Shown one piece after another: positions 33,535 through 62,013 of a stretch of 64,000 bases of DNA. The DNA comes from Candidatus Dadabacteria bacterium (lineage in GTDB: Bacteria; Desulfobacterota_D; UBA1144; Nemesobacterales; CSP1-2), in NCBI GenBank assembly GCA_963805855.1, contig CAWDVW010000007.1, forward strand, positions 527,972 through 591,971. The letters are read 5' to 3'. The notes beneath the pieces are model-generated. The model had not been told where the DNA came from. It saw only the letters and a list, made by a program, of their open reading frames with translations, and ran no database searches. A program made the position numbers and the translations under genes. How positions within the stretch are numbered: position 1 is the first letter of the stretch; every line of letters begins with the position of its first letter.

Positions 33535-33550
33535 TGGCCTTATTTTTGCA
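33535..33550 (+). promoter_or_regulatory. Candidate sigma-54 (-24/-12) promoter upstream of feoB
   Basis: TGGCCTtatttTTGCA with correct GG-N10-GC spacing, 48 nt before the ATG. Confidence 0.4.
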
Positions 33551-33598
33551 CGTATGTCATAAAAATTGAAAATTAATTGTTCATGTGGCGCTCTATAA

Positions 33599-35563
33599 AT
33601 GTTTAGCAAAGCCAAGTCTGAGAACCCCACTCATCCAAAGAAGGCTGCTTTAATCGGAAATCCTAATGTCGGGAAAAGCTTAATTTTTGGTGCCCTTACC
33701 AAAAGATACGTTACCGTTTCAAATTATCCAGGAACAACGGTCGAGATAACCTCGGGAGAGATGAAAATCGGCTCAGAAACGATTTCTCTTATAGACACGC
33801 CCGGGGTTAATAGCCTGACGCCGACGTCGGAAGACGAAAGGGTTGTTAGAAATATTATATTCGAAGATGACATTAACTTTATAATTCAGGTTATAGATGC
33901 AAAAAACCTGGAGAGGGGTCTGTATATAACAATTCAGGTTGCAGAAATGGGACTTCCCTTACTCATAGTTCTTAATATGATGGATGAAGCGCAACAAAGA
34001 GGAGTCGACATTAACATAGCAAATCTCTCTCATAAACTTGGGGTTCCTATCGTTCCGACTGTGGCAATCGAAAGAAAAGGAATAGAAGGAATTAAGAACG
34101 AACTTGTAAATTCGAGTATCCCTCAACTGAGAGTTCCTTACTCTCAAGCCATAGAAGGAATGTTAGCAGAAGTGAAACAAATTCTATCAAACCCTCATTT
34201 CTCAAGATTTATAGGCCTTTCTATCATATCAGGCGACTGCAGAATGGATGAAGACATTATTAACAGAATTCCTAAAGAAAAGCTAGACTCAATTGCTGGA
34301 CTTGATCCTCTCTCCAAGCTCGGCTCAAGGGAATATCCTATAAGCTATTTCATCGGTCTGAAGAGGCTTGAGCTCGCAAAAGAAATCGTTCAGAAGGTAT
34401 CAACTGCCTCTTTTAAATCAGGCAACCGAACCCTGGATCTTTTAGGACGGACATCGACTCATCCTGTATTTGGAATTCCTATATTAATTTTGATACTGTA
34501 CCTCGCATATCTCTTCGTGGGAAAACTGGGGGCAGGAACATTCGTTGATTTCTTGGAGGTAACCGTCTTTGAAGGATATATAAACCCCTTTTTTAAAATA
34601 GTCATACCCAAAATTATTCCCTTCAAGATACTGATTGATTTTCTGGTAGGTGATTTTGGAATAATTACTATGGCGCTGACATACTCACTTGCAATCATTT
34701 TTCCGGTAATCTGCACATTTTTCATCTTTTTTAGTATCCTCGAAGATTCCGGATACCTCCCAAGGCTGGCCATTATGGTTGACAGGGTGTTTAAGTTAAT
34801 GGGGCTAAATGGAAAAGTTGTACTCCCGATGGTACTGGGGCTGGGATGTGACACAATGGCAACCCTTACCACGAGGATGCTCGAGACGAAAAAAGAAAGG
34901 CTAATTGTGATATTTCTTCTGGCTGTAGGAATCCCGTGTTCGGCCCAGCTCGCTGTGGTATTTGCTATGGCCTCTACTCTACCTCCGTGGGGTATTTTCT
35001 TTTGGGGAGTAGAAATTTGTGTTGTTCTTTTCGCAGTTGGCTTCCTCGCTTCTTACTTTGTAAAAGGAGAAAGCCGAGACCTTATTATTGAGGTTCCGCC
35101 CATAAGGATTCCACAAATCGGCAACGTAATCGTTAAGACTATTGCGCGGCTTGAATGGTATTTGAAAGAAGCGGTCCCGCTCTTTATCTTGGGAACGATA
35201 ATACTTTTTGTCTTGGATAGGCTCAAGGTTCTTGGATTTTTACAGAATCTGGCTTCACCGATCGTAGTAAAATTTCTTGACCTTCCTAAAGAGGCCACTA
35301 ATGCCTTTTTAATCGGATTCCTGAGAAGAGACTATGGTGCTGCCGGCCTTTTCGATCTTCAACAGAGTGGATATTTGAGCAGCCATCAGGTTTTGGTAAG
35401 TCTTGTCACGATTACGCTATTTGTCCCCTGTGTTGCCAATTTTCTAATAATTATAAAGGAACAAGGGCTCAGAACCGCCCTTATTATAGTTGGGATAGTT
35501 CTTTTCATAGCCATTATTGTAGGAGGTATGACGAATTGGATACTGTGGAGCCTCGGAATCTAA
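33599..35563 (+). CDS. feoB: Ferrous iron transporter FeoB
   Basis: 654 aa. G-domain motifs GNPNVGKS, DTPG and NMMD, followed by a polytopic membrane domain. Confidence 0.95.
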   Translation: MFSKAKSENPTHPKKAALIGNPNVGKSLIFGALTKRYVTVSNYPGTTVEITSGEMKIGSETISLIDTPGVNSLTPTSEDERVVRNIIFEDDINFIIQVIDAKNLERGLYITIQVAEMGLPLLIVLNMMDEAQQRGVDINIANLSHKLGVPIVPTVAIERKGIEGIKNELVNSSIPQLRVPYSQAIEGMLAEVKQILSNPHFSRFIGLSIISGDCRMDEDIINRIPKEKLDSIAGLDPLSKLGSREYPISYFIGLKRLELAKEIVQKVSTASFKSGNRTLDLLGRTSTHPVFGIPILILILYLAYLFVGKLGAGTFVDFLEVTVFEGYINPFFKIVIPKIIPFKILIDFLVGDFGIITMALTYSLAIIFPVICTFFIFFSILEDSGYLPRLAIMVDRVFKLMGLNGKVVLPMVLGLGCDTMATLTTRMLETKKERLIVIFLLAVGIPCSAQLAVVFAMASTLPPWGIFFWGVEICVVLFAVGFLASYFVKGESRDLIIEVPPIRIPQIGNVIVKTIARLEWYLKEAVPLFILGTIILFVLDRLKVLGFLQNLASPIVVKFLDLPKEATNAFLIGFLRRDYGAAGLFDLQQSGYLSSHQVLVSLVTITLFVPCVANFLIIIKEQGLRTALIIVGIVLFIAIIVGGMTNWILWSLGI

Positions 35564-35748
35564 TCTCCTGCCCGTTGTGTGGAGAGGAATTTCATAGGGA
35601 GGAGGGAACCGAAAAGTGTATAAGTTGCCCTATAAGTATAGGAGACTGCCTGTTGATCTGCTGCCCGAGATGTGGATATTCCTTCCCCCAGGAGTCAAAA
35701 CTTATCCTGTGGCTAAAGAAAATCTTTAAACCAGAGGGAAGAGCATGA
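35536..35748 (+). CDS. Small Cys-rich (zinc-ribbon-like) protein
   Basis: CPLCGEEF...CISCP...CCPRCGYSF. It overlaps the feoB 3' end and shares an ATGA junction with the next gene. The start is uncertain (TTG 35536 or GTG 35545). Confidence 0.5.
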   Translation: MDTVEPRNLISCPLCGEEFHREEGTEKCISCPISIGDCLLICCPRCGYSFPQESKLILWLKKIFKPEGRA

Positions 35749-36401
35749 AATACGATGAAGAAAGCGATGAACTGCTTGAGCTTATCTGGAAGCTCAGGGA
35801 AGAAAGCATCCAAGACGAAGAAACAATCTACAAAAGGTCTTGGAACAAAGACGTGAAAAAAGCTATGACATGTGCTCTGGACGCGAATCTTTTAAGTAAG
35901 AGTGACGGCAAAATCAACCTTACCACAACCGGCGAAGCGAGGGCAAAAATGATAGTCAGGCGCCACCGTCTCGCCGAGAAGCTTCTTAAAGATATACTCC
36001 GGGTAGGGTCCATTGAAATGGACTCTACAGCCTGTGAGCTTGAACATATTCTTGGTCCCGAGGTCACGGAATCTATTTGTGCTTTCCTTGGACATCCCAG
36101 GTTTTGTCCACATGGAAAACCGATTCCTCTAGGAGAATGCTGCGGAATTCTTAAAGAAGAAACTAAGGAATTTGTCGTTCCACTCGCGAAAATAATCCCC
36201 GGAGATAGGGCAAAGATAATCTTTTTGGTACCCAGGCACCATATAAGATTGCATCAACTTACCAACCTGGGAATCATTCCCGGAGCTGAAATCGTCCTTC
36301 ACCAAAAACAACCTGCATATGTATTAAGAGCAGGAGAGACAGATATTGCCATAGATGATGAAATTGCGAGACATATATACGTAAGGAAGGTTTCGACTTA
36401 G
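35745..36401 (+). CDS. DtxR/MntR-family metal-dependent regulator with a C-terminal FeoA/SH3-like domain
   Basis: 218 aa. LTTTGEARAKMIVRRHRLAEKLLKDIL...CELEHILGPEV...FCPHGKPIP, then the FeoA-like VPLAKIIPGDRAKIIFL...LTNLGIIPGAEIVL. Confidence 0.88.
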   Translation: MKYDEESDELLELIWKLREESIQDEETIYKRSWNKDVKKAMTCALDANLLSKSDGKINLTTTGEARAKMIVRRHRLAEKLLKDILRVGSIEMDSTACELEHILGPEVTESICAFLGHPRFCPHGKPIPLGECCGILKEETKEFVVPLAKIIPGDRAKIIFLVPRHHIRLHQLTNLGIIPGAEIVLHQKQPAYVLRAGETDIAIDDEIARHIYVRKVST

Positions 36402-36495: not shown

Positions 36496-36511
36496 TGGCA
36501 CATTTATTGCA
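36496..36511 (+). promoter_or_regulatory. Candidate sigma-54 promoter upstream of the octaheme-FeS-NrfD operon
   Basis: TGGCACatttaTTGCA, a near-perfect match to TGGCAC-N5-TTGCW, 124 nt before the ATG at 36636. Confidence 0.6.
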
Positions 36512-36635: not shown

Positions 36636-37385
36636 ATGCCTCAACAGATAAAATATCTTCTCGCCCTTTCTATTGTCTTAATTCTCATTTTCCTAATTGC
36701 CCGCCATTTTCTTATGCCCGCAAGTTTTGGGCAATACGGTCATTATCGTGCCGATTCATTACAATCTGCAGTATCCAGGGAAATTAAATATGGCGGGGAA
36801 ACTGCATGCAACGAATGCCATGATGATATATACATTTTAAAAGACAAATCATACCATCGGGGGGTTGCCTGCGAAGTATGCCATGGGCCTGCCTATGCCC
36901 ATACCCAGGACCCGTATGAGTACAAACCCCCTGCACCAAGAAAACGCGCCTATTGTCCGTTGTGTCATGGATATAATCCCACAAGACCCACAGGATTCCC
37001 ACAGATTGACCCTGTAAGACATAATCCCGGTAAGCCCTGCATTTTCTGCCATAATCCCCATGACCCGGTTCCTCCTGTTACGCCCCAGGAATGCGACCCA
37101 TGCCACACGCAAATCGCCCGGACTAAAATTGTCTCACCCCACGCACCCCTACCCTGTACTCGATGCCACGAAGCGAAGGAAGAGCATAAATTAAATCCAA
37201 GGATGGCTTTGCCGGATAAACCGAGGAATAGAGAATTCTGTGGACAGTGCCACGCACAGGAGGCAGAAAGTTCCCCTGAAATTCCGCGTGTGGACATCAA
37301 AACTCATGGCAACGGTTTTTTGTGCTGGGAGTGTCACTATCCCCATTATCCTGAAGCCGGCATAAAGGAGGATGAGAAGCAATGA
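36636..37385 (+). CDS. Membrane-anchored octaheme cytochrome c
   Basis: 249 aa with an N-terminal TM helix. Eight CXXCH motifs: CNECH, CEVCH, CPLCH, CIFCH, CDPCH, CTRCH, CGQCH, CWECH. GGAG RBS. Confidence 0.85.
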   Translation: MPQQIKYLLALSIVLILIFLIARHFLMPASFGQYGHYRADSLQSAVSREIKYGGETACNECHDDIYILKDKSYHRGVACEVCHGPAYAHTQDPYEYKPPAPRKRAYCPLCHGYNPTRPTGFPQIDPVRHNPGKPCIFCHNPHDPVPPVTPQECDPCHTQIARTKIVSPHAPLPCTRCHEAKEEHKLNPRMALPDKPRNREFCGQCHAQEAESSPEIPRVDIKTHGNGFLCWECHYPHYPEAGIKEDEKQ

Positions 37386-38194
37386 ATACTAAAGAGCTTC
37401 TTGATAACGTAACAAATAGGAGGAACTTTCTTAAAAGCCTCCTCATAATTCCCTCCGGGTTTTTTCTTGGCGGTCTTTTTTCTAAAATATTCCCCTTCTT
37501 CAAAAAGGCATCTCGTGAAAACACTTCCACATTGGAAAGTATTTATGGGAAATACAATCCGAAGGAGCACTACTATGCGATGGGTATTGACATCGACAAG
37601 TGCATAGGGTGTGGACGATGTGTAGAGGCGTGCAAGATCGAAAATAATGTTCCTCAGGAACCCTATTTCTTCAGAACCTGGGTGGAAAGATATACTATTA
37701 CAGTCGATGGAGAAACGAGTGTGGATAGTCCTGAAGGTGGAATGCATGGCTTCCCCGAGCCCGTTAGTGAGAAAGAAATCCTTCGCACCTTTTTCGTTCC
37801 AAAGTTATGTAATCAATGTGACAATCCACCCTGTGTGCAGGTCTGTCCTGTTGGAGCCACATACCAGACAATAGATGGAGTTGTCCTTGTTGATAAAGAC
37901 TACTGTATAGGATGTCGTTACTGCATTCAGGCCTGTCCTTATGGAGCGAGATATCTCAATCCTGAGACTAAGACGGCGGACAAATGCACATTTTGTTATC
38001 ACAGAATCGTAAAGGGATTGCAGCCTGCTTGCGTAGAGGTATGTCCCACTGGAGCAAGAACTTTTGGAGAAGTAAAACCACGCAACAATCCCCTTGCGCG
38101 ATTTGTCCGATTCAACAATATTGGTGTCTTAAAGCCCTATCTTAACACAGAACCCAAGGTCTACTATGCTAATCTAGACAAGGAGGTTACCTAG
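37382..38194 (+). CDS. Tat-exported 4x[4Fe-4S] ferredoxin subunit (NrfC/PsrB/DsrO/HybA family)
   Basis: 270 aa. Twin-arginine signal NRRNFLKS and four Cys clusters: CIGCGRCVEAC, CNQCDNPPCVQVCP, CIGCRYCIQACP, CTFCYHR...CVEVCP. Confidence 0.9.
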   Translation: MNTKELLDNVTNRRNFLKSLLIIPSGFFLGGLFSKIFPFFKKASRENTSTLESIYGKYNPKEHYYAMGIDIDKCIGCGRCVEACKIENNVPQEPYFFRTWVERYTITVDGETSVDSPEGGMHGFPEPVSEKEILRTFFVPKLCNQCDNPPCVQVCPVGATYQTIDGVVLVDKDYCIGCRYCIQACPYGARYLNPETKTADKCTFCYHRIVKGLQPACVEVCPTGARTFGEVKPRNNPLARFVRFNNIGVLKPYLNTEPKVYYANLDKEVT

Positions 38195-39397
38195 TTGGAT
38201 CCCTTACTTGAGAGACTTGCCATTTCCCTTAAAGAAGTTACAGGCTTCATCTATCCCAATGAGATTGAGCTCCATTGGAGCATCCTAATTGTTGTTTATC
38301 CCTATCTTACGGGTCTTGTAGCAGGGGCTTTTATTCTGGCTTCACTGGAAAGGGTTTTTAATGTTAAAGAGGTAGAGCCTACTTACCGGCTTTCTCTTCT
38401 CACTGCGCTTGCTTTCCTTATTGTCGCGCCTCTTCCTCTTGTGGCTCATCTAGGACATCCCGAACGGGCCTATGAAATTTTCCTCACACCCAATTTCAAG
38501 TCTGCTATGGCTATGTTTGGCTTTGTATATGGCTGGTATCTATTAGTTGTTCTTCTCGTGGAATTGTGGTTTGAGTACAGGAAGGATATCGTTGTCTGGT
38601 CTAACAAAGAAAGAGGGTTGAAAAGGTTTATTTATCTCATCTTAACCCTTGGGGCTTCAGACCTTTCAGAAAGATCTCTTCAGTTTGACAGAAAGGCTGC
38701 AAAATTTATAACCATCATAGGCATTCCATCCGCTTTCCTCCTTCATGGTTATGTGGGTTTTATCTTCGGCTCTGTGAAGGCGAACCCCTGGTGGAGCAGT
38801 GTGCTTATGCCAGTAGTTTTTTTGTTTTCCGCTATAGTATCGGGGATCGCGCTTGTGATGTTACTCTACATGGTTATTACTCTCTTTCGACGAAAAAGTG
38901 TGGATATGGCCTGTATGGATAAGCTCGCTTCCTTTTTGCTCTATGCAATGATACTGGACTTCTCACTGGAAAACCTTGACTTCATTCACCGCATTTACGA
39001 ATCAGAAGAATCCATAAAAATACTGTACCAGCTTTTAATCAGCAAGCTATTCATCAGTATGGTTGTGATTCAGATGCTGTTAGGAACTATAATTCCAATG
39101 GTCTTATTGGCATGGACAAAGTTGACGCGCCTTCCTGATGAGTTAAGGCGTCTTATCTACTTTGGGAGCGCAATTCTTACCCTGATAGGAATTTTTAGTA
39201 TAAGATGGAATGTGGTTATCGGGGGGCAATTATTTTCCAAGAGCTTAAGAGGGCTTACAACGTACAAAATGGAATTGCTCGGAATTGAAGGACTCTTGGT
39301 GGCGTTATTCTTTCTAACGCTCCCATTTATTATTCTGTACATCCTCGTTGCTCTGTTGCCGCCATGGAAGGAAGCAGAGGTTAAAATTGAAACGTAG
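38195..39397 (+). CDS. NrfD/PsrC-family quinone-interacting integral membrane subunit
   Basis: 400 aa with about 10 TM helices. Lies directly after the FeS subunit. AGGAGG sits 8 nt before the TTG start. Confidence 0.85.
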   Translation: MDPLLERLAISLKEVTGFIYPNEIELHWSILIVVYPYLTGLVAGAFILASLERVFNVKEVEPTYRLSLLTALAFLIVAPLPLVAHLGHPERAYEIFLTPNFKSAMAMFGFVYGWYLLVVLLVELWFEYRKDIVVWSNKERGLKRFIYLILTLGASDLSERSLQFDRKAAKFITIIGIPSAFLLHGYVGFIFGSVKANPWWSSVLMPVVFLFSAIVSGIALVMLLYMVITLFRRKSVDMACMDKLASFLLYAMILDFSLENLDFIHRIYESEESIKILYQLLISKLFISMVVIQMLLGTIIPMVLLAWTKLTRLPDELRRLIYFGSAILTLIGIFSIRWNVVIGGQLFSKSLRGLTTYKMELLGIEGLLVALFFLTLPFIILYILVALLPPWKEAEVKIET

Positions 39398-39604
39398 AAG
39401 TTTTTCAGTTAGGGGCTATAGGAAGCTAAAGATATATCTGAAAAGTGTGACTTAAAAATCCGTTTGATTTCGTAACGAAATGAAAGGATTCAGGTGAAAA
39501 AACATGTATAAATTTCCCGCACGTCTTGGTTTGATGGTCAAAGATACCGGTTGCACCAAGCTATTAGCTGTATGTTAAAGAAAAGGCAACATGTGATACA
39601 AGTT

Positions 39605-41611
39605 ATGCGATCAAATGAGCGATTGTTTCTCTTAACTCTTTTCTTTTTAATTTTTTGTCCCTTCACAGTTACTTCCGGTTCTGATGAGCTTAAAAGTGAA
39701 GACTGCCTTATATGTCACGAGACGATGGAGCCCTTGGTTGATAAAGGACTCTTAGATGCCTCAATCCATAGTGGTTTCGAGTGCACAGATTGTCATCAGG
39801 ACGTAACACAGATACCCCACGAAGAAGTCCCGAAGAAGGTTGATTGCTCTTCATGTCACCCAGAGATTGCGAAAGAATACTCTGAAAGTATACATGGTGA
39901 AGCAATAGCGAGGGGTGATCGCGATGCCCCAATTTGTACGAGTTGTCACGGCTCACACGGCATTCTTCCAAAGAATAACCCTAAATCTCATATAAACCCC
40001 TTGAATATTCCTGCGACATGTTCAAATTGCCATACAAGTGAAAAGATTACAAAGCAGCACCCACTCCCGTCACCGGAATTTATTGAGAGTTACAGTAAAA
40101 GTGTTCACGGCCGTGGCGTCCTTGTCAGTGGGCTAGTTGTCTCCGCGGTTTGTTCCGACTGCCATGGTGCGCATAATATAAAGCCCAAAAGTGACAAAAA
40201 CTCCGGTGTCTATAGGGCAAATATACCGCTAACCTGTAAGAAGTGCCATCTTGGAATCTATGATGACTATGAGAGGAGCATCCATGGACAGCTCTGGAAA
40301 GAAGGTTTCGAAGCGGGACCAGTGTGTACGACATGCCACAAATCCCATCAGATCACAGAGCCTGTGTCAGCTGGATTCAGGCTTCAGATATCTGAGGAGT
40401 GTAGTGGATGCCATGAGGCCAGAGCACTTACCTATCGGGACACATTCCACGGGCAGTCAACGTCTCTAGGGTTTGTTCAGGTCGCAAAATGCTCAGATTG
40501 CCATACCCCTCACCTAAATCTTCCAGAAGAAAACCCACTTTCATCAGTCTATTCCGGAAATCTCATCGACACTTGCGGCAAATGTCACTCCAATATAAAT
40601 AAGAAATTTATCACCTATGACCCACATGCCGATCCTCACGATAAGGATAGATCTCCTCTGCTTTATTACGTAAATACCCTCATGAATTGGCTTCTCATTT
40701 CAGTTTTTGGCTTTTTTGGCTTACATCTGGTTCTTTGGCTTCAGCGCTCAGCCGTAGCAGTAGCAAGGGGCGAGATTCCCACCCACTGGAGCGGCGACAA
40801 GTATGTTCGCCGGTTTAGCCTTCCCCACAGGATTACGCACGTTACTCTTGTCATAAGCTTCCTAGGACTTGCTGCTACGGGACTTCCACTCATGTATAAT
40901 TACACGGCGTGGGGAAAAATTCTCGAAGGAATTCTAGGCGGCGTTGAGGTTACAAGGTACTTCCATAGATTCTTTGCAATAGTGACATTGGGTTACATTA
41001 GTTTTCATCTCGGTTATATGCTAGACAAGATATTTTTAAAGGGCAACATAAGCCTTCTCTATGGTCCTAATTCTATGATTCCTAGGAGTGAAGACATTGT
41101 GGATCTCTACAAGAACATAAGGTGGTTCTTATACTTAGGTCCCCGTCCGAAACTGGACAGATGGACATATTGGGAGAAGTTCGATTATTTTGCGGTTTTC
41201 TGGGGAATACCGGTGATAGGCTTCTCCGGACTTATGCTCTGGTTTCCCGAGGTCTTTACAAAGATTCTTCCTGGCTACTTTCTAAATGTGGCAATGATAG
41301 TCCACGGAGAGGAAGCCCTTCTTGCAGTTGGATTCATATTCACATTCCATTTCTTCCACACCCATCTCCGACCTGAGAGTTTTCCGTTAGACACTGTCAT
41401 TTTTACCGGCAAAATACCTCTGGAAAGATTTATCGAGGAAAGACCCGAAGAATACAATAGGCTACTCAAAGAGGGAAGGCTTGAAGAAATCATTGTTGAA
41501 CCGCCATCACAACTTGCTATCATGTTCTCTAAGTGGTTTGGTTTTGCTGCACTAGGCGTAGGATTGATCTTGATCATCGCGATCTTTGCGACCTTCCTTG
41601 CTAATATTTAG
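39605..41611 (+). CDS. 11-heme cytochrome c fused to a C-terminal FdnI/HydC-type cytochrome b membrane domain (CbcL-like)
   Basis: Signal peptide MRSNERLFLLTLFFLIFCPF, 11 CXXCH motifs (CLICH ... CGKCH), then 4-5 TM helices with conserved His (PHRITHV, YFHRFF, IVHGEEALL, FHFFHTHL). The start is uncertain (track 39551, ATG 39572 or 39605). Confidence 0.8.
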   Translation: MRSNERLFLLTLFFLIFCPFTVTSGSDELKSEDCLICHETMEPLVDKGLLDASIHSGFECTDCHQDVTQIPHEEVPKKVDCSSCHPEIAKEYSESIHGEAIARGDRDAPICTSCHGSHGILPKNNPKSHINPLNIPATCSNCHTSEKITKQHPLPSPEFIESYSKSVHGRGVLVSGLVVSAVCSDCHGAHNIKPKSDKNSGVYRANIPLTCKKCHLGIYDDYERSIHGQLWKEGFEAGPVCTTCHKSHQITEPVSAGFRLQISEECSGCHEARALTYRDTFHGQSTSLGFVQVAKCSDCHTPHLNLPEENPLSSVYSGNLIDTCGKCHSNINKKFITYDPHADPHDKDRSPLLYYVNTLMNWLLISVFGFFGLHLVLWLQRSAVAVARGEIPTHWSGDKYVRRFSLPHRITHVTLVISFLGLAATGLPLMYNYTAWGKILEGILGGVEVTRYFHRFFAIVTLGYISFHLGYMLDKIFLKGNISLLYGPNSMIPRSEDIVDLYKNIRWFLYLGPRPKLDRWTYWEKFDYFAVFWGIPVIGFSGLMLWFPEVFTKILPGYFLNVAMIVHGEEALLAVGFIFTFHFFHTHLRPESFPLDTVIFTGKIPLERFIEERPEEYNRLLKEGRLEEIIVEPPSQLAIMFSKWFGFAALGVGLILIIAIFATFLANI

Positions 41612-41759
41612 AGCCTCTTCGAGAGACGGAGTTATACTAAATGTTGATAATTAATTTAGAAAACAAAGCACAGTCTTCGATATAAACATAAACTTGAAAC
41701 GCGGGTATATTTTTGGTGAGACTACTGATGAATCTTAGATCCACAAGGGAGAAGTTCAC

Positions 41760-52846: not shown

Positions 52847-53182
52847 ATGAACCAAATAGATCAAGTTTTGCAGGAAAAAGAACCTAAGAGCACTGTCTGG
52901 AGTGGAATAGGCCAAAAAGCCCGAGGTAAAAATGTCACCATCTCTTTAAATGAGGAATTTTGCAAAGGCTGTGAGATATGCGTCGAAATATGCCCAAATA
53001 AATGTGTGGAGATGAACGGGGCTTACCGAATGGTAAAAATTCCCAAAGGAACGGAGCGATTAAACTTAAGCGCCCTTGAAGCGGGGATAGAACTGGCACT
53101 AGAAGCTTATGATAAGGTCCCGCCCAATGCTGCATACGCTGGCGATAAAGTACAAGGCTTGGGCAAGGACTTCGATGTCTAA
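52847..53182 (+). CDS. Small protein with a single 4Fe-4S ferredoxin-type motif
   Basis: 111 aa. CKGCEICVEICPNKC is the only complete cluster motif. Confidence 0.5.
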   Translation: MNQIDQVLQEKEPKSTVWSGIGQKARGKNVTISLNEEFCKGCEICVEICPNKCVEMNGAYRMVKIPKGTERLNLSALEAGIELALEAYDKVPPNAAYAGDKVQGLGKDFDV

Positions 53183-53261
53183 CCACTTAACTCTTTATTC
53201 GTTATTTGCAATATCGAATTTTTGCAGGTCATAATAATATATAGTCAAAGGAGGGATTATA

Positions 53262-54551: not shown

Positions 54552-54556
54552 ATAGT

Positions 54557-55804
54557 ATGTCTGTTAAAAACGGGAAACAGAAAGACACAGCGCACGATCA
54601 GTTCAAACCGACATTTAAGAGAATGATGAACCAGGTAGTGGCCGCGGGAAGCTGTTGCGGCTGTTCAATGTGCGTGGTTAGTTGTCCATATGGCGTAATA
54701 AAATACGACCACAATTCTACGATGCCATATATAGCAAAGCCAATCCTTGGATTTGATTATTGCCCTATAAGTGAGAATATTGGTTGTGATGTGTGTTCAA
54801 ACGCATGCTCCGGATTGGGATTAGAGCCCTCGAAGCCGCTAGAACCCGAAGAAATAGACATACGCCGTTTTGGAAGAAAGAGACGCGAAGATGAGCCCTA
54901 TGGGATCACTCGATTTATATGTGCCACCAGGAGCGCTGATCCAGGAGTAGTTGCAAATGCACAAGATGGTGGAGCAATAAGGGAGATTCTGAGGTGTGCT
55001 TTTGAGGAAGGGATCATCGAAGGTGCCGCAGTAGCTGGTCCTTCCGATAATCTATGGCTCGAGCCTGTACCAACAGTTGTAAAAAGCGTAGAAGAGCTAA
55101 GGCGTACTTCAAAATCTTGGTATACGTATTGCCCAACCCCACTGGCCCTTGTCGAGGCCGTAGATAAATACAAGTTAAAGAATCTCGCTTTAGTTGGGGT
55201 CCCCTGTGAAATCTCAGGATATGCCGCTGCCTTAGGAGCGGATACAGACTTTATAACTCCCGACAGAGGTTCAAAAAACGTAGAAAAACAGAAAAAGCAC
55301 CTCAAGCAATATGTGGATTCCGTAAGATTGGCAATAGGTCTTTTCTGTACCGAATCCTATGATTACGACGGGTACATGCGTGAATACATAATAGGAAAAC
55401 TCGGGCTTGATCCTCGTGAAATAATCAAAGTAAACATAAAGAGAAAGGTTTTTATACACTTGAGAGATGGAACAAGAATTGAAACTGCCCTCGACGAATT
55501 AAAGCCTTATCACAGGGAACAGTGTCAATACTGTGGTGACTTTAGCGCTGAGTACGCCGATATTTCAGCCGGCGGTGTGGGAACAGAAGGATGGACAATA
55601 CTTATCATTAGATCCGAATTGGGAGAAAGTATACTTAATCGTACCGTGCAAAAGGGGTATCTGCAGGTTAAGAACGCATCCGAGTTTGAACAGTCCGTAA
55701 GTCTTTTGAAAAGATTCACCAACAAGAAAAGAGCAAAGCAAATGAACAACTTATCCCAATTGACGGATATAGAGGCACACGATGTGTTAAAAAGCGCCAA
55801 ATAA
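54557..55804 (+). CDS. FrhB/FdhB-family (coenzyme F420 hydrogenase/dehydrogenase beta-like) flavo-iron-sulfur protein
   Basis: 415 aa. N-terminal CCGCSMCVVSCPYG and CDVCSNAC, then AQDGGAI, ALVGVPCEISG and CQYCGDFSAEYADISAGG, which are typical of FrhB_FdhB N and C domains. Confidence 0.75.
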   Translation: MSVKNGKQKDTAHDQFKPTFKRMMNQVVAAGSCCGCSMCVVSCPYGVIKYDHNSTMPYIAKPILGFDYCPISENIGCDVCSNACSGLGLEPSKPLEPEEIDIRRFGRKRREDEPYGITRFICATRSADPGVVANAQDGGAIREILRCAFEEGIIEGAAVAGPSDNLWLEPVPTVVKSVEELRRTSKSWYTYCPTPLALVEAVDKYKLKNLALVGVPCEISGYAAALGADTDFITPDRGSKNVEKQKKHLKQYVDSVRLAIGLFCTESYDYDGYMREYIIGKLGLDPREIIKVNIKRKVFIHLRDGTRIETALDELKPYHREQCQYCGDFSAEYADISAGGVGTEGWTILIIRSELGESILNRTVQKGYLQVKNASEFEQSVSLLKRFTNKKRAKQMNNLSQLTDIEAHDVLKSAK

Positions 55805-55935
55805 ATCGGGCGATACGTACGTACTTATCCAGGTGTTAAAGGTTTCTCACAATTAGCTTCACGTTAAAAATTAATTTTTACCTTATGATCATGGTTCAAG
55901 ATAATGGGTTTAGCTGACCCCGTTTTTTGACGAAG

Positions 55936-56733
55936 TTAAGACAAGGATTTCCTATAATTGTGAATCACAAATGCTGAGATAAAAAGAAACACGATGAGGA
56001 TTCCTCCAAAGATCTTCCTGCGTTTGATTATAGTTTCATCGTCCTGTACATCATTTTCGATCTTGTCAAGATCACCTGTAATCGTGCCCGTCTTGTCTAT
56101 TATCAAGTCTACCGAAAGAACATGTGTTAAACGGTGAAACTGGTTTCTATTTGCAAAAAGTGCATCTTCAATGCTTTTAGTATCAAAACCCTCTTCCTTA
56201 ACCTTTTCAATAGTTTTATTAAGCTGGTTTATCTTCATCTCCGTTCCTTCCATAACAAATTTTATCTTTTTTGCCCGTTCATATGTGTGACACCTTGAGC
56301 AATTCTCTTCGTTTATAAGACCCAAGGTAGCCCTTTGCTGATGGTGAGCGGTATGGCATGTAGTGCAAACTGGGCGTTTCTGCTTCTCGGTTAGCCAATG
56401 AGGACTCTTCATATAGTTCTCCATAACTGCCACATGGCACTTTCCACAGAACTGAGGAACCTCATCTTCTGTAGGGGCCCCAACAAAACCTTCCTCCGGG
56501 CCCATCGCGTCCATATCCTGTAAATCAGGGTTACCACCGTGACAGTTGTTACAAGATATGCCATTTTGTTTATGAATGCTTTCTTGCCAAAGCTCTACAG
56601 GCTTTGCCAGGTCATCTCCCATCTCGGTATGACAAGAAATGCAGGAGGTTTCCGGTTCTTGGGCAACAACCTGAGCGACAAAAGCAAAGATAAGCAGCAA
56701 AAAAGAAAAAAGGAGTAAGTATTTGACAAACAT
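55936..56733 (-). CDS. Pentaheme cytochrome c with a C-terminal anchor (terminal gene of the Rieske/cyt b operon)
   Basis: 265 aa with a signal peptide. Five motifs: CISCH, CNNCH, CGKCH, CTTCH, CSRCH. C-terminal TM helix. Confidence 0.85.
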   Translation of the reverse strand: MFVKYLLLFSFLLLIFAFVAQVVAQEPETSCISCHTEMGDDLAKPVELWQESIHKQNGISCNNCHGGNPDLQDMDAMGPEEGFVGAPTEDEVPQFCGKCHVAVMENYMKSPHWLTEKQKRPVCTTCHTAHHQQRATLGLINEENCSRCHTYERAKKIKFVMEGTEMKINQLNKTIEKVKEEGFDTKSIEDALFANRNQFHRLTHVLSVDLIIDKTGTITGDLDKIENDVQDDETIIKRRKIFGGILIVFLFISAFVIHNYRKSLS

Positions 56734-56745
56734 TTCGTCTCCTTT

Positions 56746-57801
56746 TTATAGAATTTTTCCTAAAACTGTAAGGGCTAAAAAGACCAAAACCCCAAGAATT
56801 GCCAGCGTCAGGAAAACCGGCCTTCTTAGCGGATTTCTTTCACGGCCAACATCGATTAGAGGTAAGAGAATAAGAAAGAGAATTAGCAAAATCTGTATAA
56901 ACACACCAAGAAACTTATTCGGAATTAGCTTTAGCATCTGGTAGGTTGCAAGAAAATACCACTCAGGCTTTATATGAGGAGGTGTAAAAAATGGGTCCGC
57001 CCGTTCCAAGGCATCCGTTGGGAAATAAAGCTTCGGGTAAAAGAAGACAAAAATGAAAAGGATCCCGAGGAAAAAGTATATAACCTTCACGTCCTCTAAC
57101 GCAAACTGGGGCACGAAGGGCACCTTTTTCACCTCTTCCTTCTTAGTCCCAGGAGGATAGGATATACCCGTTCTCCTCATAAAGAACAGATGCATTGCGA
57201 CCAGCATTAGAAACAATAAAGGCACGACTATGACATGCAGGGTGAAAAATCTACCCAACGTTGCTTGCCCTACACTTTCACTGCCTCTTACCCACTTTAC
57301 TAGTTCATTGCCAATATAAGGCACCGCACTTATCGTATCCGTTGCAACTGTAGTAGCCCAATAAGAGAGCTGGCTCCAAGGAAGGAGATAGCCCGAGAGT
57401 GCTGCTAAAAATCCCAAAGACAAGAGCACGCAGCCCGAGATCCACTGTAGCTCTCTGGGCTTCTTATAAGAGCCCATAAAAAGAGTGCTCGCCATATGGA
57501 GAAAGAGTACAGCTATGAATATGTTCGCTGCCATCGCATGAACCCTTCTAATTAACCACCCGAATGGGACCCCGTTAGTTATATAGGTGACACTATCAAA
57601 GGCTTTGTCTACATCGGGGATATAATATATGAGAAGCAAGATCCCGGATATAAACTGGATTAAAAGCATTGCGATGAGTGCGGCGCCCATAGAGTACCAA
57701 AAACTCAGATTCGCCGGGACCATATAGCCGGTGAGATTACTTTTTATTACCTCTCTAATTCCAACTCTTTCATCGATCCAATCAACGATTTTCTTCAACA
57801 T
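56746..57801 (-). CDS. Cytochrome b of a bc1/b6f-type complex (fused b + subunit IV)
   Basis: 351 aa. WYSMGA, RRVHAMAANIF..FLHM, LPWSQLSYWATTV, FFTLHV, and the Qo-site PEWYFL motif. Confidence 0.93.
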   Translation of the reverse strand: MLKKIVDWIDERVGIREVIKSNLTGYMVPANLSFWYSMGAALIAMLLIQFISGILLLIYYIPDVDKAFDSVTYITNGVPFGWLIRRVHAMAANIFIAVLFLHMASTLFMGSYKKPRELQWISGCVLLSLGFLAALSGYLLPWSQLSYWATTVATDTISAVPYIGNELVKWVRGSESVGQATLGRFFTLHVIVVPLLFLMLVAMHLFFMRRTGISYPPGTKKEEVKKVPFVPQFALEDVKVIYFFLGILFIFVFFYPKLYFPTDALERADPFFTPPHIKPEWYFLATYQMLKLIPNKFLGVFIQILLILFLILLPLIDVGRERNPLRRPVFLTLAILGVLVFLALTVLGKIL

Positions 57802-57802
57802 A

Positions 57803-58246
57803 TCAAGCCTCTGAAAGTTTTATTTCATTCTCCACAACTTTAACACCGTAGTGGGGAAGTGGCTTGGGAGGCGGTCCTGAAATGACGTTTCCATTGGCGT
57901 CAAATCTACCCGCATGACAAGGACACAAAAATATACCCGCGTCCTTTTCCCACTGTACAATACATCCAAGGTGTGTACATACGGCTGAAAAGGCTCTGAT
58001 CTCGCCCTTATAATCGATGACAACTGTTGGGTGACCGAAAGCAAGTCCCGTTTTTGATCCTTCTTCTGATACAGCCGACACCATTATGGGTTTACCCGAA
58101 GGGTTTACAAAAACCTTTTCTGTCCCGGCCGTCGATTTCGGTAAAAGGTATGCTACCGTAGGAGGTATCCAGCTTAACGCTGTAAGACCGAATATCCATT
58201 TAACGACTGTGCCAAAGAAATCCCTTCTCCCGATTTCATCGCCCAT
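57803..58246 (-). CDS. Rieske [2Fe-2S] subunit
   Basis: Tat-like signal [12 protein letters not shown]. Cluster boxes CTHLGC and CPCHAGRF. The ATG at 58246 has an AGGAGG RBS. The track ORF extension to 58333 overlaps the upstream gene. Confidence 0.9.
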
Positions 58247-58251
58247 GGGGG

Positions 58252-59499
58252 TTACCTCCTTAGTCTTTGATATGTTATCTGCAGTAAAAACAAAACTACC
58301 AAAACTGCGGCGAGTAAAGCAAACCAACCCCATATGCCTATACTTCCTTTCCCAATTTTTATTAATTGTTCATCCTCTGCCATCTCTACCTTCATTATGT
58401 TTGGTTCGAGGAAAGGAACCCTGAATTCATAATACAAGTAAGATTCAACCAATAGTGTCTCGCCAATTCCTTTCGGAAGAGGAAAGGTAAACTCCTCTCT
58501 CCGCGTCTCCTTTGGCCTGATTCGGTTATCGCTCTTTACAGACGTAGCTTTTAGAAACATATCTTTAATATTTTCTTCCGGAATCTCTCTTCCCTCCCCA
58601 TCAACAAGAACTCGTCTGTATACGATCTCCTCACTTTCAAGCTCCTGTCCCCTGGGGTCGAGAAGTTTAACCGTGAGTATTACTTTACGCGAAGGAATGC
58701 CAGTGGGTAGAGAGTGCCCCGCTTCTGCGTTCGTTACATAGACTACCACCGAGATATGGTCATCGGCTTTTTCGACAACCTGGGTCAGCGTTGCCGCCTT
58801 GGTTATATTTATCTGAGAATGTCCACCTAGAAATTTATGCGCAGTTACATTATGTTGGGTTTTTGCAAATTCAGGATTCACAATAGGGACCCCAAACTCC
58901 TCTGGCATATGACAATTCTGACATTGGATCCCCTTTTCCGCATAAGGTCCCCGTTTCCATTCCGTATACGTACTCATCACGTGAAATCCATTTTCGTTTA
59001 CGACTTCATGACATCCGGCGCAGAATTCAGCCTTTAGGTGGATCTCAGAAAAATGATTCTGATGTCCTATTTCCAAGTCGCTCTTGATTGGACCTCTTTT
59101 TACAAAGCCTAGCGCAAATTCAAATGGCTCTTCCTTACTTAGATCCACGCCTTTTATGGTATGACAAAAATCACATGTAACCCCTTCCTTGGTTATGGGC
59201 TGGGTGAGGTTATAATCGCCGGTAACCCTCACTGTAGGAGCATGACATTTAAGGCAGAATCTTCTATTTTCTTCCCTCTCGACTTCATTATAAAAACCGA
59301 GAAAAACAGGGTCGCTGATGGAAGAAGCATGTAAAGAATTTTTCCACTGCTTATGTATCATTGTATGGCAGGAGCCACAGACCTGACTCTCTGTGTACCC
59401 TTCCTTTTTAACAATGGGATGGTCCGTCACGGCTCCTACAGTGACTGTACTAACGAGCAGGGCTAGAAGAACGTTTATAAGATCAGATTTCTTGAGCAT
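58252..59499 (-). CDS. Pentaheme cytochrome c (cytochrome c554-like multiheme family) with a C-terminal anchor
   Basis: 415 aa. Five motifs: CGSCH, CLKCH, CDFCH, CAGCH, CQNCH(MP). [23 protein letters not shown] is typical of that family. C-terminal TM helix. Confidence 0.85.
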
Positions 59500-59648
59500 A
59501 CCGGAAAGAGTTTCCTACAAGTAAGACATCCTGTAAAGAAAGTAAAATTTTCTATTCAGTCGCCGCAACAATTTCAGACTTAATTTATCTTATTCTACAT
59601 CAAGAGTCCAGTTCCTATTCAGGCTCTATGTTTCATTGTTTCATTGAG

Positions 59649-59664
59649 AGCAAGTTCCATGCCA
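59649..59664 (-). promoter_or_regulatory. Candidate sigma-54 promoter (minus strand) for the multiheme-Rieske-cyt b operon
   Basis: The minus strand reads TGGCATggaacTTGCT, 149 nt upstream of the ATG at 59499. Confidence 0.55.
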
Positions 59665-59840
59665 ATAGCTCACCAGGCCTTAGAATCTAGTCTTTTTGCT
59701 CCCACGGAATTGTGGTCATCAGGGAAAGCAAGTCGACTGTATGAAAATCTGACATACTAAGTGTTTTACCTCTAATAAAACCCCTGTAGCGAACCCTAGG
59801 GAAATCGCTAGTTAAACTGTTTTAGCGATCTGTAATTCTT

Positions 59841-59856
59841 TGGCACAAAGTTTGCT
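59841..59856 (+). promoter_or_regulatory. Sigma-54-like -24/-12 motif immediately upstream of hemA
   Basis: TGGCACaaagtTTGCT. It lies only about 20 nt from the ATG at 59877, with no clear SD, so function is doubtful. Confidence 0.35.
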
Positions 59857-59876
59857 CAGTGATACTCTTCAAGAAG

Positions 59877-61187
59877 ATGAGATTGGTTCTTGTCGGACTT
59901 AATCATAAGACTGCTCCTGTTGAGGTGAGGGAAAATCTCTATTTTGAAAATTCTTCTCTCGGAGCTGGACTAGATGACTTGCGGCAGAAAGCCGGAATTA
60001 GAGAATGTGCAATCCTCTCGACCTGTAATCGTGTGGAGGTATATGGTGTAACAGAAAATGAAGACGGCATAGAGGAAATTACACAATTTCTATCCGAATT
60101 TCATGGTGTTCCTACACTGAACTTCGCTCCTTACCTCTATGTTATGACGAGAAACGCTGTTACAAGGCACATGCTTCGAGTTACGTCCAGCCTAGATTCT
60201 ATGGTGGTGGGTGAACCCCAAATACTGGGACAGGTTAAGGATGCTTATAGAATGGCTGTTGGAAAGAAGACCGCAGGGCCTATACTCAACCGCCTCTTCA
60301 ATCATGCCTTTTTTGTTGCAAAGAGGGTGAGAGCCGAAACCGGAATAGGACACTATACCACCTCGGTAAGTCATGCAGCGGTGGAGCTTGCAAAAAGAAT
60401 ATTTGACGACCTTTCAGGGAGAAGGGTCATGCTCATAGGAGCAGGAGGAATGGGAAAGCATGCTCTGACTCATCTTGTAGCAGCAGGGGTAAGAGACTTA
60501 ATCGTTGCCAATCGGACAATTGGGCGAGCCCAAGAGATTACTGAAAAATTGGGCGGTAGAGCGATAAGAATTGAAGAGGCTTACAATTACTTAAAGGAAT
60601 CGGATATCGTGATTACCGCTACCGGTTCTAATGATTTTATAATAAAGCCACAGAACGTTCTCGATGCTCTAAAGCTCCGGCGCAATGAGCCCATGTTTAT
60701 GATAGATATTGGAGTCCCGAGAGATGTTGACCCGAGGGTTGGAGAGCTAGAAAACGTCTATCTTTACGATATAGACGACCTTCAGGGTGTCGTAGTTGAA
60801 ACCTCTAAGATAAGACACGTTCACCTAGAAAAGGCTGAAGAGATAATTCTTCAAGGAGATACGGGGTTCCATCAGTGGCTCGAAGGGCTTAAGGCCGTAC
60901 CGACCATCATCTCCATAAGACGACGGTTTAATGAAATTAAATGCATTGAGGTTGAGAAGGCCTTAAAGAGGTTAGGCAACATCTCGGAAAGAGAGAGGGA
61001 GATCATAGAAGGGATGGCATCTGCAATTATAGGTAAGATTCTTCATCACCCGGTAACCAGGTTAAAAACAGAGGCTTCTAAGTTAACAGGGGATATCTAT
61101 GCAGATACGATCAGAGAAATATTTAACCTTGATGAACAATCCAAGTTACAAGAATACTGCGTAGTGAATTCTGAAAATGAGGTTTAG
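59877..61187 (+). CDS. hemA: Glutamyl-tRNA reductase
   Basis: MRLVLVGLNHKTAPVEVRE, STCNRVEVY (catalytic Cys), GAGGMGK. The ATG at 59877 is preferred over GTG 59859. Confidence 0.95.
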   Translation: MRLVLVGLNHKTAPVEVRENLYFENSSLGAGLDDLRQKAGIRECAILSTCNRVEVYGVTENEDGIEEITQFLSEFHGVPTLNFAPYLYVMTRNAVTRHMLRVTSSLDSMVVGEPQILGQVKDAYRMAVGKKTAGPILNRLFNHAFFVAKRVRAETGIGHYTTSVSHAAVELAKRIFDDLSGRRVMLIGAGGMGKHALTHLVAAGVRDLIVANRTIGRAQEITEKLGGRAIRIEEAYNYLKESDIVITATGSNDFIIKPQNVLDALKLRRNEPMFMIDIGVPRDVDPRVGELENVYLYDIDDLQGVVVETSKIRHVHLEKAEEIILQGDTGFHQWLEGLKAVPTIISIRRRFNEIKCIEVEKALKRLGNISEREREIIEGMASAIIGKILHHPVTRLKTEASKLTGDIYADTIREIFNLDEQSKLQEYCVVNSENEV

Positions 61188-61191
61188 TGGG

Positions 61192-61581
61192 CTACTGTAC
61201 CTCGCCCTTAACGAGCTCGGAATTGCGAATACCTCGAATGGGATTGAATAAAAAACAAAAAATTACGCCCTTAGTATCAGCGAGATTATGAATCCTGTAG
61301 GGCTCATTATCGAATATTGATATACCCTCGCCGCGAAGAAGTTCGTAGTACCTATCACCGACTTCAAATGCCAGGTTGCCCTCGACAATCATGTGAAATG
61401 ACGCATTGTACCAGAGGTAGGATTCATCAACCGAAGATTTCGGCCCTAGTTCTATTGTTAATAACTCAATTGGATCACTTTCGTATATTACACGAATACA
61501 GGTTGTTCCTCGCTGAATAGACCTTAAAGAGTGCCCCTTCTTAAAAACCCGTACATCCGCGTGTTCCATCTTTCTTTCCAC
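61192..61581 (-). CDS. Cupin-domain protein
   Basis: 129 aa, beta-rich. HMIVEGNLAFEVGDRYYELLRGEGISI resembles a cupin barrel. Confidence 0.45.
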   Translation of the reverse strand: MERKMEHADVRVFKKGHSLRSIQRGTTCIRVIYESDPIELLTIELGPKSSVDESYLWYNASFHMIVEGNLAFEVGDRYYELLRGEGISIFDNEPYRIHNLADTKGVIFCFLFNPIRGIRNSELVKGEVQ

Positions 61582-61997
61582 AAGTGCTTACAATTAAATT
61601 ATCTACGTGGCAATATCCATACCGAAGCATAAGAACGTTCGGGCGAAAAATTGCCCATTTCTAACCGCCTATAATTAAATAGTATTTCTTAAAATCCGAA
61701 TTCCTGTCAAAGACGGGATTCCGAGAATTTATAGAGCAGACGATTTCAAAATGAAATGGTTTTTCTCTAATTGACTGAAATGATTGATTTTTACAATATT
61801 ACAATTTGCAATAAATTCTTAAATATTGTTCAAAATGCAATATATCAATTTTTTATCACGGCGATAATGAATCACAGCTCTACCGAGCTTTTCTATATTT
61901 TAAGCCGGGTTGATTCTAACATACCGTCAAGGTTAATTTTATTGCGAGTGAAATGGTATTTCGACACACTATCTCAGCATTTTGAATGGATGGTTTC

Positions 61998-62013
61998 TGG
62001 CATGATAATTGCT
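61998..62013 (+). promoter_or_regulatory. Candidate sigma-54 promoter upstream of the lipoprotein multiheme cytochrome
   Basis: TGGCATgataaTTGCT, 114 nt before the ATG at 62128. Confidence 0.55.

Follow-up and report, generated by a model that had tools for sequence, protein, structure and literature searches.

We analysed a 64-kb window (64,000 nt of contig CAWDVW010000007.1; coordinates below count from its first letter) from the 3.11-Mb, 9-contig metagenome-assembled genome (MAG) of an uncultured Dadabacteria-like member of the Thermodesulfobacteriota, and found seven intergenic motifs in it that are very probably genuine sigma-54 (-24/-12) promoters. On the sequence evidence we put the probability of this reading at about 85%. 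Six of the sites, at 36496(+), 52572(-), 52802(+), 59649(-), 59841(+) and 61998(+), had been listed in a sequence-only reading of the window, which missed the equally good seventh at 31984-31999(-). A sigma-54-like site at 67684(-), just past the window end, would be one more promoter of the same cluster. Each promoter would drive an operon of a lineage-restricted respiratory island, and the operons concerned comprise multiheme cytochrome/quinol-oxidoreductase modules, a Rieske-cytochrome b complex, a cytochrome c maturation (Ccm) system and paralogs of hemA and gltA, here called hemA2 and gltA2. In what follows, G000 denotes the genome of the window, G001 and G002 its sister species, in which the gene order is the same, and G006 and G010 family-level relatives from two further genera.

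Predicted sigma-54 sites in the window and in the genome

The sequence-only reading had named seven motifs in front of respiratory, iron and heme genes, the six above and one before feoB. All seven were recovered at their coordinates and on their strands (the minus-strand sites having been given by their high coordinates, 52587 and 59664), outside called genes and facing the adjacent gene, and the interval from the -24 GG to the -12 GC was exactly 10 nt in each of them as well as in the 31984 site. The strict pattern TGGYAY-N5-TTGCW matched the window 7 times where 0.13 matches are expected, and in 100 dinucleotide-preserving shuffles the count never exceeded one; the 7 matches were the six strong sites and the unlisted 31984-31999(-), the pattern excluding the feoB site with its TGGCCT. 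The looser TGG-N8-TTGCW gave 11 matches against 3.9 expected.

The sites were also scored with a position weight matrix (PWM) trained on 17 intergenic sites that all lie outside the window, so that the scores of the window sites are independent of training. The six strong sites of the earlier list scored between 17.4 and 22.4 bits, namely 22.4 at 52572(-), the top score of the window, 21.9 at 59649(-), 21.4 at 52802(+), 18.8 at 61998(+), 18.6 at 36496(+) and 17.4 at 59841(+), followed by 16.7 at 31984(-); the feoB site at 33535(+) reached 6.4 bits. Given the density of matches in coding DNA, 0.024 matches of at least 16 bits would be expected in the ~8.7 kb of non-coding DNA of the window, where 6-7 were seen (Poisson P ~3e-13), and the earlier statement that so many hits are unlikely by chance is thus borne out. 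The window holds 7 of the 27 sites of at least 16 bits in the genome, and only 4 of 20000 random placements yielded a 64-kb window with as many. The distance from motif to start codon ranged from ~20 to 345 nt, the unusual leaders being those of hemA2 (~10 nt) and of an SBF-family transporter gene (~334 nt). A scan of 30000-64000 against Rfam returned zero elements and hence no riboswitch that would explain the length of the SBF leader (334 nt) or of the remaining long ones.

The rest of the genome supplies the machinery that such promoters would use, with a complete rpoN (499 aa, with AID, CBD and DBD domains) and 11 strong genes for bacterial enhancer-binding proteins (bEBPs; PF00158, the sigma-54-interaction AAA+ domain). 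Genome-wide, TGGCAY-N5-TTGCW had 24 matches, 19 of them in non-coding DNA, which corresponds to 15.6 times the coding density, and 16 of these 19 face a gene within 400 nt; control patterns with the spacing shifted by one base showed no non-coding bias. At a PWM threshold of at least 16 bits there were 26 intergenic and 8 coding matches (a 13-fold ratio of densities), and at a threshold of at least 20 bits 17 and 1 (69-fold). Across motif definitions the non-coding density was 13-70 times the coding density, and an equal density in coding DNA was not seen. PWM positions that had not been used in selecting the sites still gave the textbook extended consensus (YTGGCACG-N4-TTGCW), with T preceding TGG and G following TGGCAY.

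Classic sigma-54 targets include glnB-glnA, amtB, gdh and pilin-type genes. The sites outside the window precede glnB-glnA, two amtB genes, the glutamate dehydrogenase gene (gdh), pilin-like genes and two ECF sigma operons, and further ones lie before OsmC/DJ-1 stress genes and another multiheme cytochrome gene; since several of these are classic targets, the out-of-window sites serve as a positive control for the motif. A predicted sigma-54 promoter was found no more than 8 kb from 7 of the 11 bEBP genes of this genome. The earlier likening of the window to Geobacter, with sigma-54 promoters before respiratory and heme genes, is accordingly upheld by rpoN, the 11 bEBPs, the non-coding enrichment, the classic targets and the conservation described next.

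Conservation of the sites and the operons they precede

The strongest argument for function comes from the octaheme operon. Its predicted promoter, TGGCACatttaTTGCA at 36496-36511(+) (18.6 bits), has a predicted transcription start site (TSS) at ~36522 and a leader of ~115 nt. A sigma-54 site stands directly downstream of dtxR-feoA in all five operon-bearing genomes, which represent three genera (G001, 19.5 bits; G002, 23.3; G006, 17.5; G010, 23.9), although the flanks are unalignable and an additional gene for a 160-aa Cys-rich protein lies between in G002, G006 and G010. Because the motif persists through this turnover of sequence, the site is probably functional. The block on the plus strand at 36636-43268 encodes, by Pfam, an octaheme cytochrome (36636-37385), a 4Fe-4S protein (37382-38194) and NrfD (38195-39397), followed by a CbcL-like (39551-41611) and an ImcH-like protein (41760-43268). 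The PWM scan found no sigma-54 site in the gaps 39398-39550 and 41612-41759, so the CbcL-like and ImcH-like genes would be either co-transcribed with the octaheme operon or under other promoters. The 160-aa protein is membrane-anchored and carries the motifs APCCSNYSILTCCCPCNLAKSVWG and GNACYRGRC; its gene is the first after the sigma-54 promoter in G002 (L079/L080), G006 (L154) and G010 (L155), and is missing from G000 and G001.

The predicted promoter of the Rieske-cytochrome b unit, TGGCATggaacTTGCT at 59649-59664(-) (21.9 bits, leader ~140 nt), lies in a 23-nt block, ATTGAGAGCAAGTTCCATGCCAA, that is unchanged in G001 and G002 although its flanks are rich in indels. The operon (55936-59499, minus strand) was assigned by Pfam to a multiheme cytochrome (58252-59499), a Rieske protein (57803-58333), cytochrome b (56746-57801) and a second multiheme cytochrome (55936-56733). 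Among 16 relatives its orthologs were found only in G001, G002, G006 and G010, and beyond the genus G006 and G010 alone among the genomes searched have the octaheme and Rieske/cytochrome b operons. The Rieske open reading frame (ORF) overlaps the cytochrome ORF at 58252-59499 by 82 nt, and its true start is probably further downstream.

Divergently from this operon, the predicted promoter TGGCACaaagtTTGCT at 59841-59856(+) (17.4 bits, predicted TSS ~59867) precedes hemA2 and is conserved, along with the 30 nt upstream, in G001 (19.5 bits) and in G002, which has TTGCC at -12. The product of hemA is the first committed enzyme of heme synthesis. For hemA2 (59877-61187, plus strand) we took the ATG at 59877 (MRLVLVGLNHKTAP) as the start, presumably correctly, as it matches the classical HemA N-terminus and the Pfam alignment; the product has the GlutR_N, Shikimate_DH and GlutR_dimer domains of a glutamyl-tRNA reductase and keeps the STCNR motif with the conserved Cys. 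A second hemA copy at C6:235820-237097 is 55% identical to hemA2. Because the one hemA that other family members carry resembles the C6 copy more closely (60-74%, and 64-74% in seven of eight) than it does hemA2 (54-62%), and hemA2 is restricted to genus g1, the hemA preceded by the sigma-54 site is, to judge from these identities, an accessory paralog and not the main heme-synthesis gene. More distant Dadabacteria hemA loci (55-62% identity) lack a sigma-54 motif, which we considered as a sign of non-conservation and rejected, these loci being orthologs of the other hemA copy.

Downstream of hemA2, the predicted promoter TGGCATgataaTTGCT at 61998-62013(+) (18.8 bits, leader ~104 nt) precedes the gene of an 828-aa multiheme lipoprotein cytochrome (62128-64000, plus strand, continuing to 64614 past the window end; Pfam Cytochrome_C554 and C7). 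Its core, TTCTGGCATGAT(A/T)ATTGC, stands out as an island of conservation in both sister species (G001, 22.0 bits; G002, 17.9 bits), and an indel of at least 17 nt follows downstream.

At the gltA2 operon the predicted promoter TGGTACgaattTTGCA, 52802-52817(+) (21.4 bits), lies 30 nt before a ferredoxin-like gene, with a predicted TSS at ~52828 and a leader that contains a GGAG Shine-Dalgarno sequence. The alignment with G001 (21.4 bits) and G002 (20.6 bits) starts exactly at the -24 element, the DNA upstream being unrelated, and the gltA2 orthologs of G005 and G006 have their own sigma-54 sites (15.5 and 15.7 bits). By Pfam the operon (52847-55804, plus strand) encodes the ferredoxin-like protein, a remnant KorD, then gltA2 (53262-54551) and an FrhB-like protein (54557-55804). 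The gltA2 module of G001 (L076:5257-8149) and G002 is preceded by a four-subunit 2-oxoacid:ferredoxin oxidoreductase, in the order korD-like gene and then alpha, beta and gamma subunits; in G000 (52847-53262) the alpha, beta and gamma genes have been lost and a 111-aa ferredoxin-like remnant is kept. The single-copy gltA of other families in the order (L057-L074) is 75-89% identical to the second G000 copy (C7:657647-658927) versus 70-76% to the window copy, whereas some single-copy gltA genes within the family (L053-L056) do not discriminate between them (78-83% versus 79-80%), and the window-type gltA is confined to a subset of the family. By these comparisons the window gltA is a divergent accessory paralog and not the main gene for entry into the tricarboxylic acid (TCA) cycle.

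The highest-scoring predicted promoter, TGGCATagaatTTGCA at 52572-52587(-) (22.4 bits), stands 345 nt upstream of the SBF transporter gene. The unit that had been described there as a transporter does begin with this gene, which opens a cytochrome-rich run of ten same-strand genes at close spacing (43339-52227, minus strand), probably a long operon whose co-transcription we infer. In order, Pfam assigns the run to the SBF transporter, an unknown protein, a monoheme cytochrome c, an unknown protein, a c7-type multiheme cytochrome, a cytochrome b561-like protein, an M56 peptidase-like protein, an unknown protein, a dCache-HAMP histidine kinase and a NarL-type regulator. The SBF gene and the following 204-aa gene (50500-52227) are found only in G000, and because they form an insertion that has no counterpart in G001 and G002, the 52572 site is specific to G000. 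Orthologs of the next gene of the run, g50106, have weaker sigma-54-like sites upstream in G001 (14.9 bits) and G010 (15.8 bits). The immediate divergent neighbour of the ferredoxin-like gene in G001 and G002 is the g50106 cytochrome operon.

The site absent from the earlier list, TGGTATgaaatTTGCT at 31984-31999(-) (16.7 bits), precedes a 91-aa ORF and a Ccm system I operon, so that cytochrome c maturation would be part of the promoter set. Its sequence TTCATATTATATTGGTATGAAATTTGC is identical in G001 and G002 between variable flanks (the sites there score 20.5 and 19.3 bits), and the ccm genes of G006 are preceded by a 22.0-bit site. An ORF at 31684-32106 spans the 31984 site; its 5' part is not coding, because indels occur between species upstream of its ATG. 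The operon (26346-31959, minus strand; PF01578, PF03100, PF16327+PF01578 and PF00034) comprises the 91-aa ORF and genes for CcmC-like (30982-31641), CcmE (30389-30805) and CcmF (28387-30387) proteins, a zinc-ribbon protein and a cytochrome c domain protein. Among the matches in the relatives, one PWM hit at G010:10659 was discarded as being without GG.

Candidate activator and enhancer elements

By the established mechanism, sigma-54 RNA polymerase bound to the -24 GG and -12 GC would form a closed complex and fire only after ATP-driven remodelling by an AAA+ enhancer-binding protein bound upstream, which would make these operons silent by default and switched on by a signal. For this genome the sequence shows the presence, enrichment and conservation of the motifs, the genes around them and the rpoN and bEBP genes, while we infer the transcription starts, the activator-promoter pairing and the signal.

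The earlier remark that no AAA+ activator is encoded in the window is literally true, but a two-component pair begins 0.7 kb past its end, in an operon convergent to the multiheme cytochrome gene. The bEBP (64700-66103, minus strand) has REC, AAA+ and HTH_8 domains with GAFTGA and Walker A present, and the histidine kinase (~66050-67610, minus strand; L081:4079-5638) has HAMP, HisKA and HATPase domains. The sigma-54-like site of the pair's operon, GTGGTATCGTTCTTGCAAA at 67684(-), scores 15.8 bits and is conserved in G001 and G002; its position suggests autoregulation of the kinase-regulator operon. Four predicted sigma-54 promoters lie within 8 kb of the bEBP, and cytochrome operons with such sites within 6 kb of it. 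Orthologs of the bEBP (93% and 89% identity) occur only in the genus, other relatives having at most 47%. Its proximity makes it the best activator candidate for 59649(-), 59841(+), 61998(+) and its own promoter at 67684(-), an assignment whose chances we rate slightly below even. The G002 ortholog (G002:C171:7831-9222, L124) contains one in-frame TAA and is either a pseudogene or affected by an assembly error. In the kinase, the periplasmic loop between two membrane helices carries a CANS(S/A)CH (CX4CH) motif that is kept in all three species of the genus. This may be where a c-type heme is attached, and the kinase would then be a redox sensor.

Upstream of the promoters, a tentative candidate for a shared upstream activator site is GTATGAAAATCTGACATAC (59739-59757), an inverted repeat GTATG-N9-CATAC near the midpoint between 59649 and 59841, the two divergent promoters, and separated by 92 nt from the start of each PWM match. 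It is among the few blocks conserved with G001 in this region, 19 of 20 positions match across the three species, and GTATG-N9-CATAC, which as a palindrome reads on both strands, occurs at this single place in the genome. A second copy of the enhancer core, TCTAACATAC (61915-61924), agrees with the hemA-region element in 9 of its 10 positions and stands 82 nt upstream of the 61998 promoter; it is the sole block of at least 8 nt conserved with G001 in 61875-61995 and has two substitutions in G002. In all, a TCTGACATAC-type element stands 82-92 nt upstream of three G000 promoters. In G001 the form TCTGACATA(C/T) stands upstream of five, including copies 146 nt upstream of the kor/gltA2 promoter and 71 nt upstream of the g50106 promoter. 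The element is absent in G006 and G010, which both lack an ortholog of the bEBP. The adjacent kinase and REC-AAA+(GAFTGA)-HTH pair possibly acts via such an element, 80-95 nt upstream of its promoters, while the remaining promoters may depend on other bEBPs. The only 11-mer that the upstream regions have in common is GACACCTTACA, found at the kinase promoter and in the fdx/SBF region; chance alone would give ~0.8 such matches, and the 11-mer, although partly conserved in G001, is a weak lead.

Alternative explanations

Several observations weigh against the main reading of the sites as a cluster of genuine sigma-54 promoters. The feoB site scores at background (6.4 bits), under an 8-bit threshold that 414 positions in coding DNA reach. 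The hemA2 promoter would leave a leader of only ~8-10 nt with a poorly placed Shine-Dalgarno sequence, and the 52572 site, with its 334-nt leader, is not retained in the same form by the sister species. The gene calls behind the genome-wide statistics were crude (ORF and codon-usage score, ~80% coding), so DNA labelled intergenic could partly be coding, the effect of which would be to dilute and not to inflate the enrichment. Finally, a one-occurrence-per-sequence expectation-maximization (EM) search with widths 10-16 found no enhancer common to the six upstream regions above shuffled controls, and the TCTGACATAC pattern was defined post hoc from the sites themselves, which makes its statistics partly circular.

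The last two points bear on whether the sites form a single regulon. Because no common enhancer motif was found, one coordinated regulon is unproven, and it is an even bet that the sites are real but answer to several of the 11 bEBPs, each with one or a few target operons and a signal of its own; their clustering would then reflect a preference of the lineage for sigma-54 on accessory respiratory genes and not a common switch for heme, TCA and cytochromes. The EM search stayed at the level of the shuffles, on which ground we discarded an obvious enhancer shared by all sites; the TCTGACATAC element occurs in only 2-3 intergenic regions; G006 and G010 retain sigma-54 sites on their octaheme, feoB and ccm operons although the neighbouring bEBP has no ortholog there; and the run driven from 52572 itself encodes another two-component system. 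Set against these points are the functional coherence of the operons (heme supply, cytochrome maturation and cytochromes), the occurrence of the TCTGACATA(C/T) element upstream of five promoters in G001, and the fact that bEBP sites are often degenerate and a search of six sequences is low in power.

A more ambitious proposal is that the genus-specific kinase, possibly a heme-based redox sensor in view of its conserved CX4CH motif, and its sigma-54 activator command a 'cytochrome factory' regulon in which the electron-transfer modules, Ccm, hemA2 as a dedicated copy of the rate-limiting heme-synthesis enzyme, and the 2-oxoacid:ferredoxin oxidoreductase with gltA2 as a dedicated TCA-entry module are switched on in one step. 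We consider this unlikely; if true, the supply of cofactor and the flow of carbon would follow cytochrome demand through specialised paralogs and not through regulation of housekeeping genes. The suggestion in the sequence-only reading that the sites tie iron uptake, heme synthesis, the TCA entry step and electron-transfer conduits together holds for the heme and respiratory genes, but the feoB site is weak, hemA and gltA are accessory paralogs and the enhancer search did not show a single regulon. As for the upstream activator sites that it proposed to look for at 80-150 nt, no common motif rose above shuffles, and what emerged was the post hoc TCTGACATAC-type element upstream of three promoters.

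The feoB site has to be judged separately, and here the claim that all seven listed motifs are sigma-54 promoters stands for the six strong ones, which score well and are conserved in the sister species, and not for the seventh. The weak, ambiguous motif TGGCCTtatttTTGCA at 33535-33550(+) lies 49 nt before feoB. The chances are evenly divided on whether it is no sigma-54 promoter at all but overlaps a sigma-70 promoter, with feoB under a metal-dependent repressor that binds 33567-33583. Besides its low score, TGGCCT is without the conserved A of TGGCAY. The motif is part of a block of ~60 nt that is nearly fully conserved in G001 and G002, and because the whole block is conserved, its conservation says nothing specific about the -24/-12 elements. 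The sequence can also be read as a sigma-70 promoter, TTGGCC-N18-CATAAA plus a TG extension, though these hexamers are mediocre. Between the motif and the start codon lies the near-palindrome TGAAAATTAATTGTTCA (33567-33583, palindromic at 15 of 17 positions), a probable metal-regulator operator by its sequence; a related palindrome, ATTGAAAATGAGATTCAAT, is found at the equivalent place in G006 and G010, so the operator is kept across genera, and the gene after feoB encodes, by Pfam, a DtxR-type repressor with a FeoA domain. In favour of sigma-54, the motif has the exact GG-N10-GC spacing and is identical in three species, and the feoB genes of G006 and G010 have clearly better sigma-54 sites (13.9 and 18.1 bits) just upstream of the shared operator, though displaced from the position of the G000 motif. 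Control of feoB by sigma-54 may thus be ancestral to the island, and these better sites also speak against dismissing the feoB motif as pure chance.

An alternative in which the six strong motifs arose by chance, bind another factor or belong to a dispersed repeat, and the operons are read from sigma-70 promoters, is very improbable: sigma-70-like hexamer pairs are present in the same intergenic regions and the genome is rich in small repeats, but a sigma-70 and terminator scan of 51000-64000 found no enrichment of such pairs (27 against 23.6 expected), whereas the strict sigma-54 motif greatly exceeds its expectation, the sites share only the sigma-54 consensus, the same motif marks glnA, amtB and gdh, and the motifs are conserved islands, the octaheme-operon site surviving even the replacement of its flanks.

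Comparison with known sigma-54 systems

In Geobacter sulfurreducens, -24/-12 promoters of the RpoN regulon were predicted or observed at genes for nitrogen assimilation, pilin, central metabolism and extracellular-electron-transfer cytochromes, well beyond nitrogen (PMC2725144; Leang et al. 2009, BMC Genomics 10:331); hemA, gltA, citrate synthase and heme are unmentioned in the main text of that paper. The same mix is seen in G000, where glnBA, amtB, gdh and pilin-like genes appear together with cytochrome operons. The host here is unlike G. sulfurreducens in being a Dadabacteria-like Thermodesulfobacteriota MAG and not a member of the Desulfuromonadia, the promoters here are predicted, about a quarter of the strong sites fall in one 64-kb island, and accessory hemA, gltA and Ccm are among the targets. 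The Geobacter literature already documents sigma-54 wiring of cytochromes and central metabolism, and what is modestly new is how densely the sites are packed in one island, that Ccm is included and that dedicated hemA and gltA paralogs are used.

A closer parallel to the candidate activator is BccR (GSU0598) of G. sulfurreducens, a REC-AAA+-HTH protein that is required for expression of cbcBA from a sigma-54 promoter and is encoded beside this b-/c-type cytochrome operon, which is silent by default and induced at particular redox conditions (Joshi, Chan and Bond 2021, bioRxiv 10.1101/2021.04.15.440034). The bEBP next to the window has the same three-domain architecture and also lies beside cytochrome operons with sigma-54 sites, a likeness of architecture and placement. 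It differs in being co-transcribed with a membrane kinase and convergent to a multiheme cytochrome gene, not divergent from cbcBA, in having several candidate target operons, and in that its orthologs are limited to one genus.

The pair also resembles the well-established NtrC-glnAp2 systems in combining a histidine kinase with a REC-AAA+-HTH_8 regulator that carries GAFTGA. The probable NtrC of this genome is another gene, however, by glnB-glnA at C2:555279, and the kinase described here has a periplasmic CX4CH loop and no cytoplasmic PAS sensor.

Respiration with multiheme cytochromes demands a very large supply of heme and maturation capacity, and for uncultured sediment and soil bacteria the question is how such costly systems are switched on. 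For a lineage without a cultured member, the present analysis maps eight predicted promoters and names candidates for the sensor/activator pair and for the enhancer. It suggests that the extra copies of hemA and citrate synthase are kept for the induced state, which would be a small addition to the Geobacter picture and not a new principle. It also advises caution in annotation, in that a 'hemA' or 'gltA' under sigma-54 control may be an accessory paralog.

Other features of the window

Two further sigma-54-like motifs were noted. A possible weak site, tCGGTATggataTTGCc at 61607-61625(-) (12.7 bits), lies 26 nt before a cupin gene (61192-61581) in a 19-nt block conserved in G001; it has neither the T expected before GG nor the consensus letter at its end, and our confidence in it is low. 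Within the FrhB-like gene, the motif TTGGTATACGTATTGCCCA at 55117-55135(+) (14.1 bits) is identical in G001 and G002 and is probably conserved as coding sequence rather than as a promoter.

Near the Ccm operon, the gene at 32504-32824 has a good sigma-54 promoter (18-19 bits) upstream in G001, G002 and G006. In G000 this promoter is broken at 32380-32489 by an insert that contains a perfect sigma-70 consensus (TTGACA-N17-TATAAT) within a palindrome, and a 110-nt copy of the insert, 96% identical, lies at C5:1013998-1014107. By its sequence the change looks like a swap from a sigma-54 to a sigma-70 promoter via a repeated segment. Further upstream, at 32290-32345, a block TTTGTCAG-N7-TGTCAGTTTATTTGACATCTGACAG is kept in three species and contains the inverted repeat TGTCAG-N12-CTGACA and several copies of CTGACA; it stands ~90 nt upstream of the G001 and G002 sigma-54 promoter before gene 32504 and may be a regulator binding site related to the other TCTGACA elements of the island.

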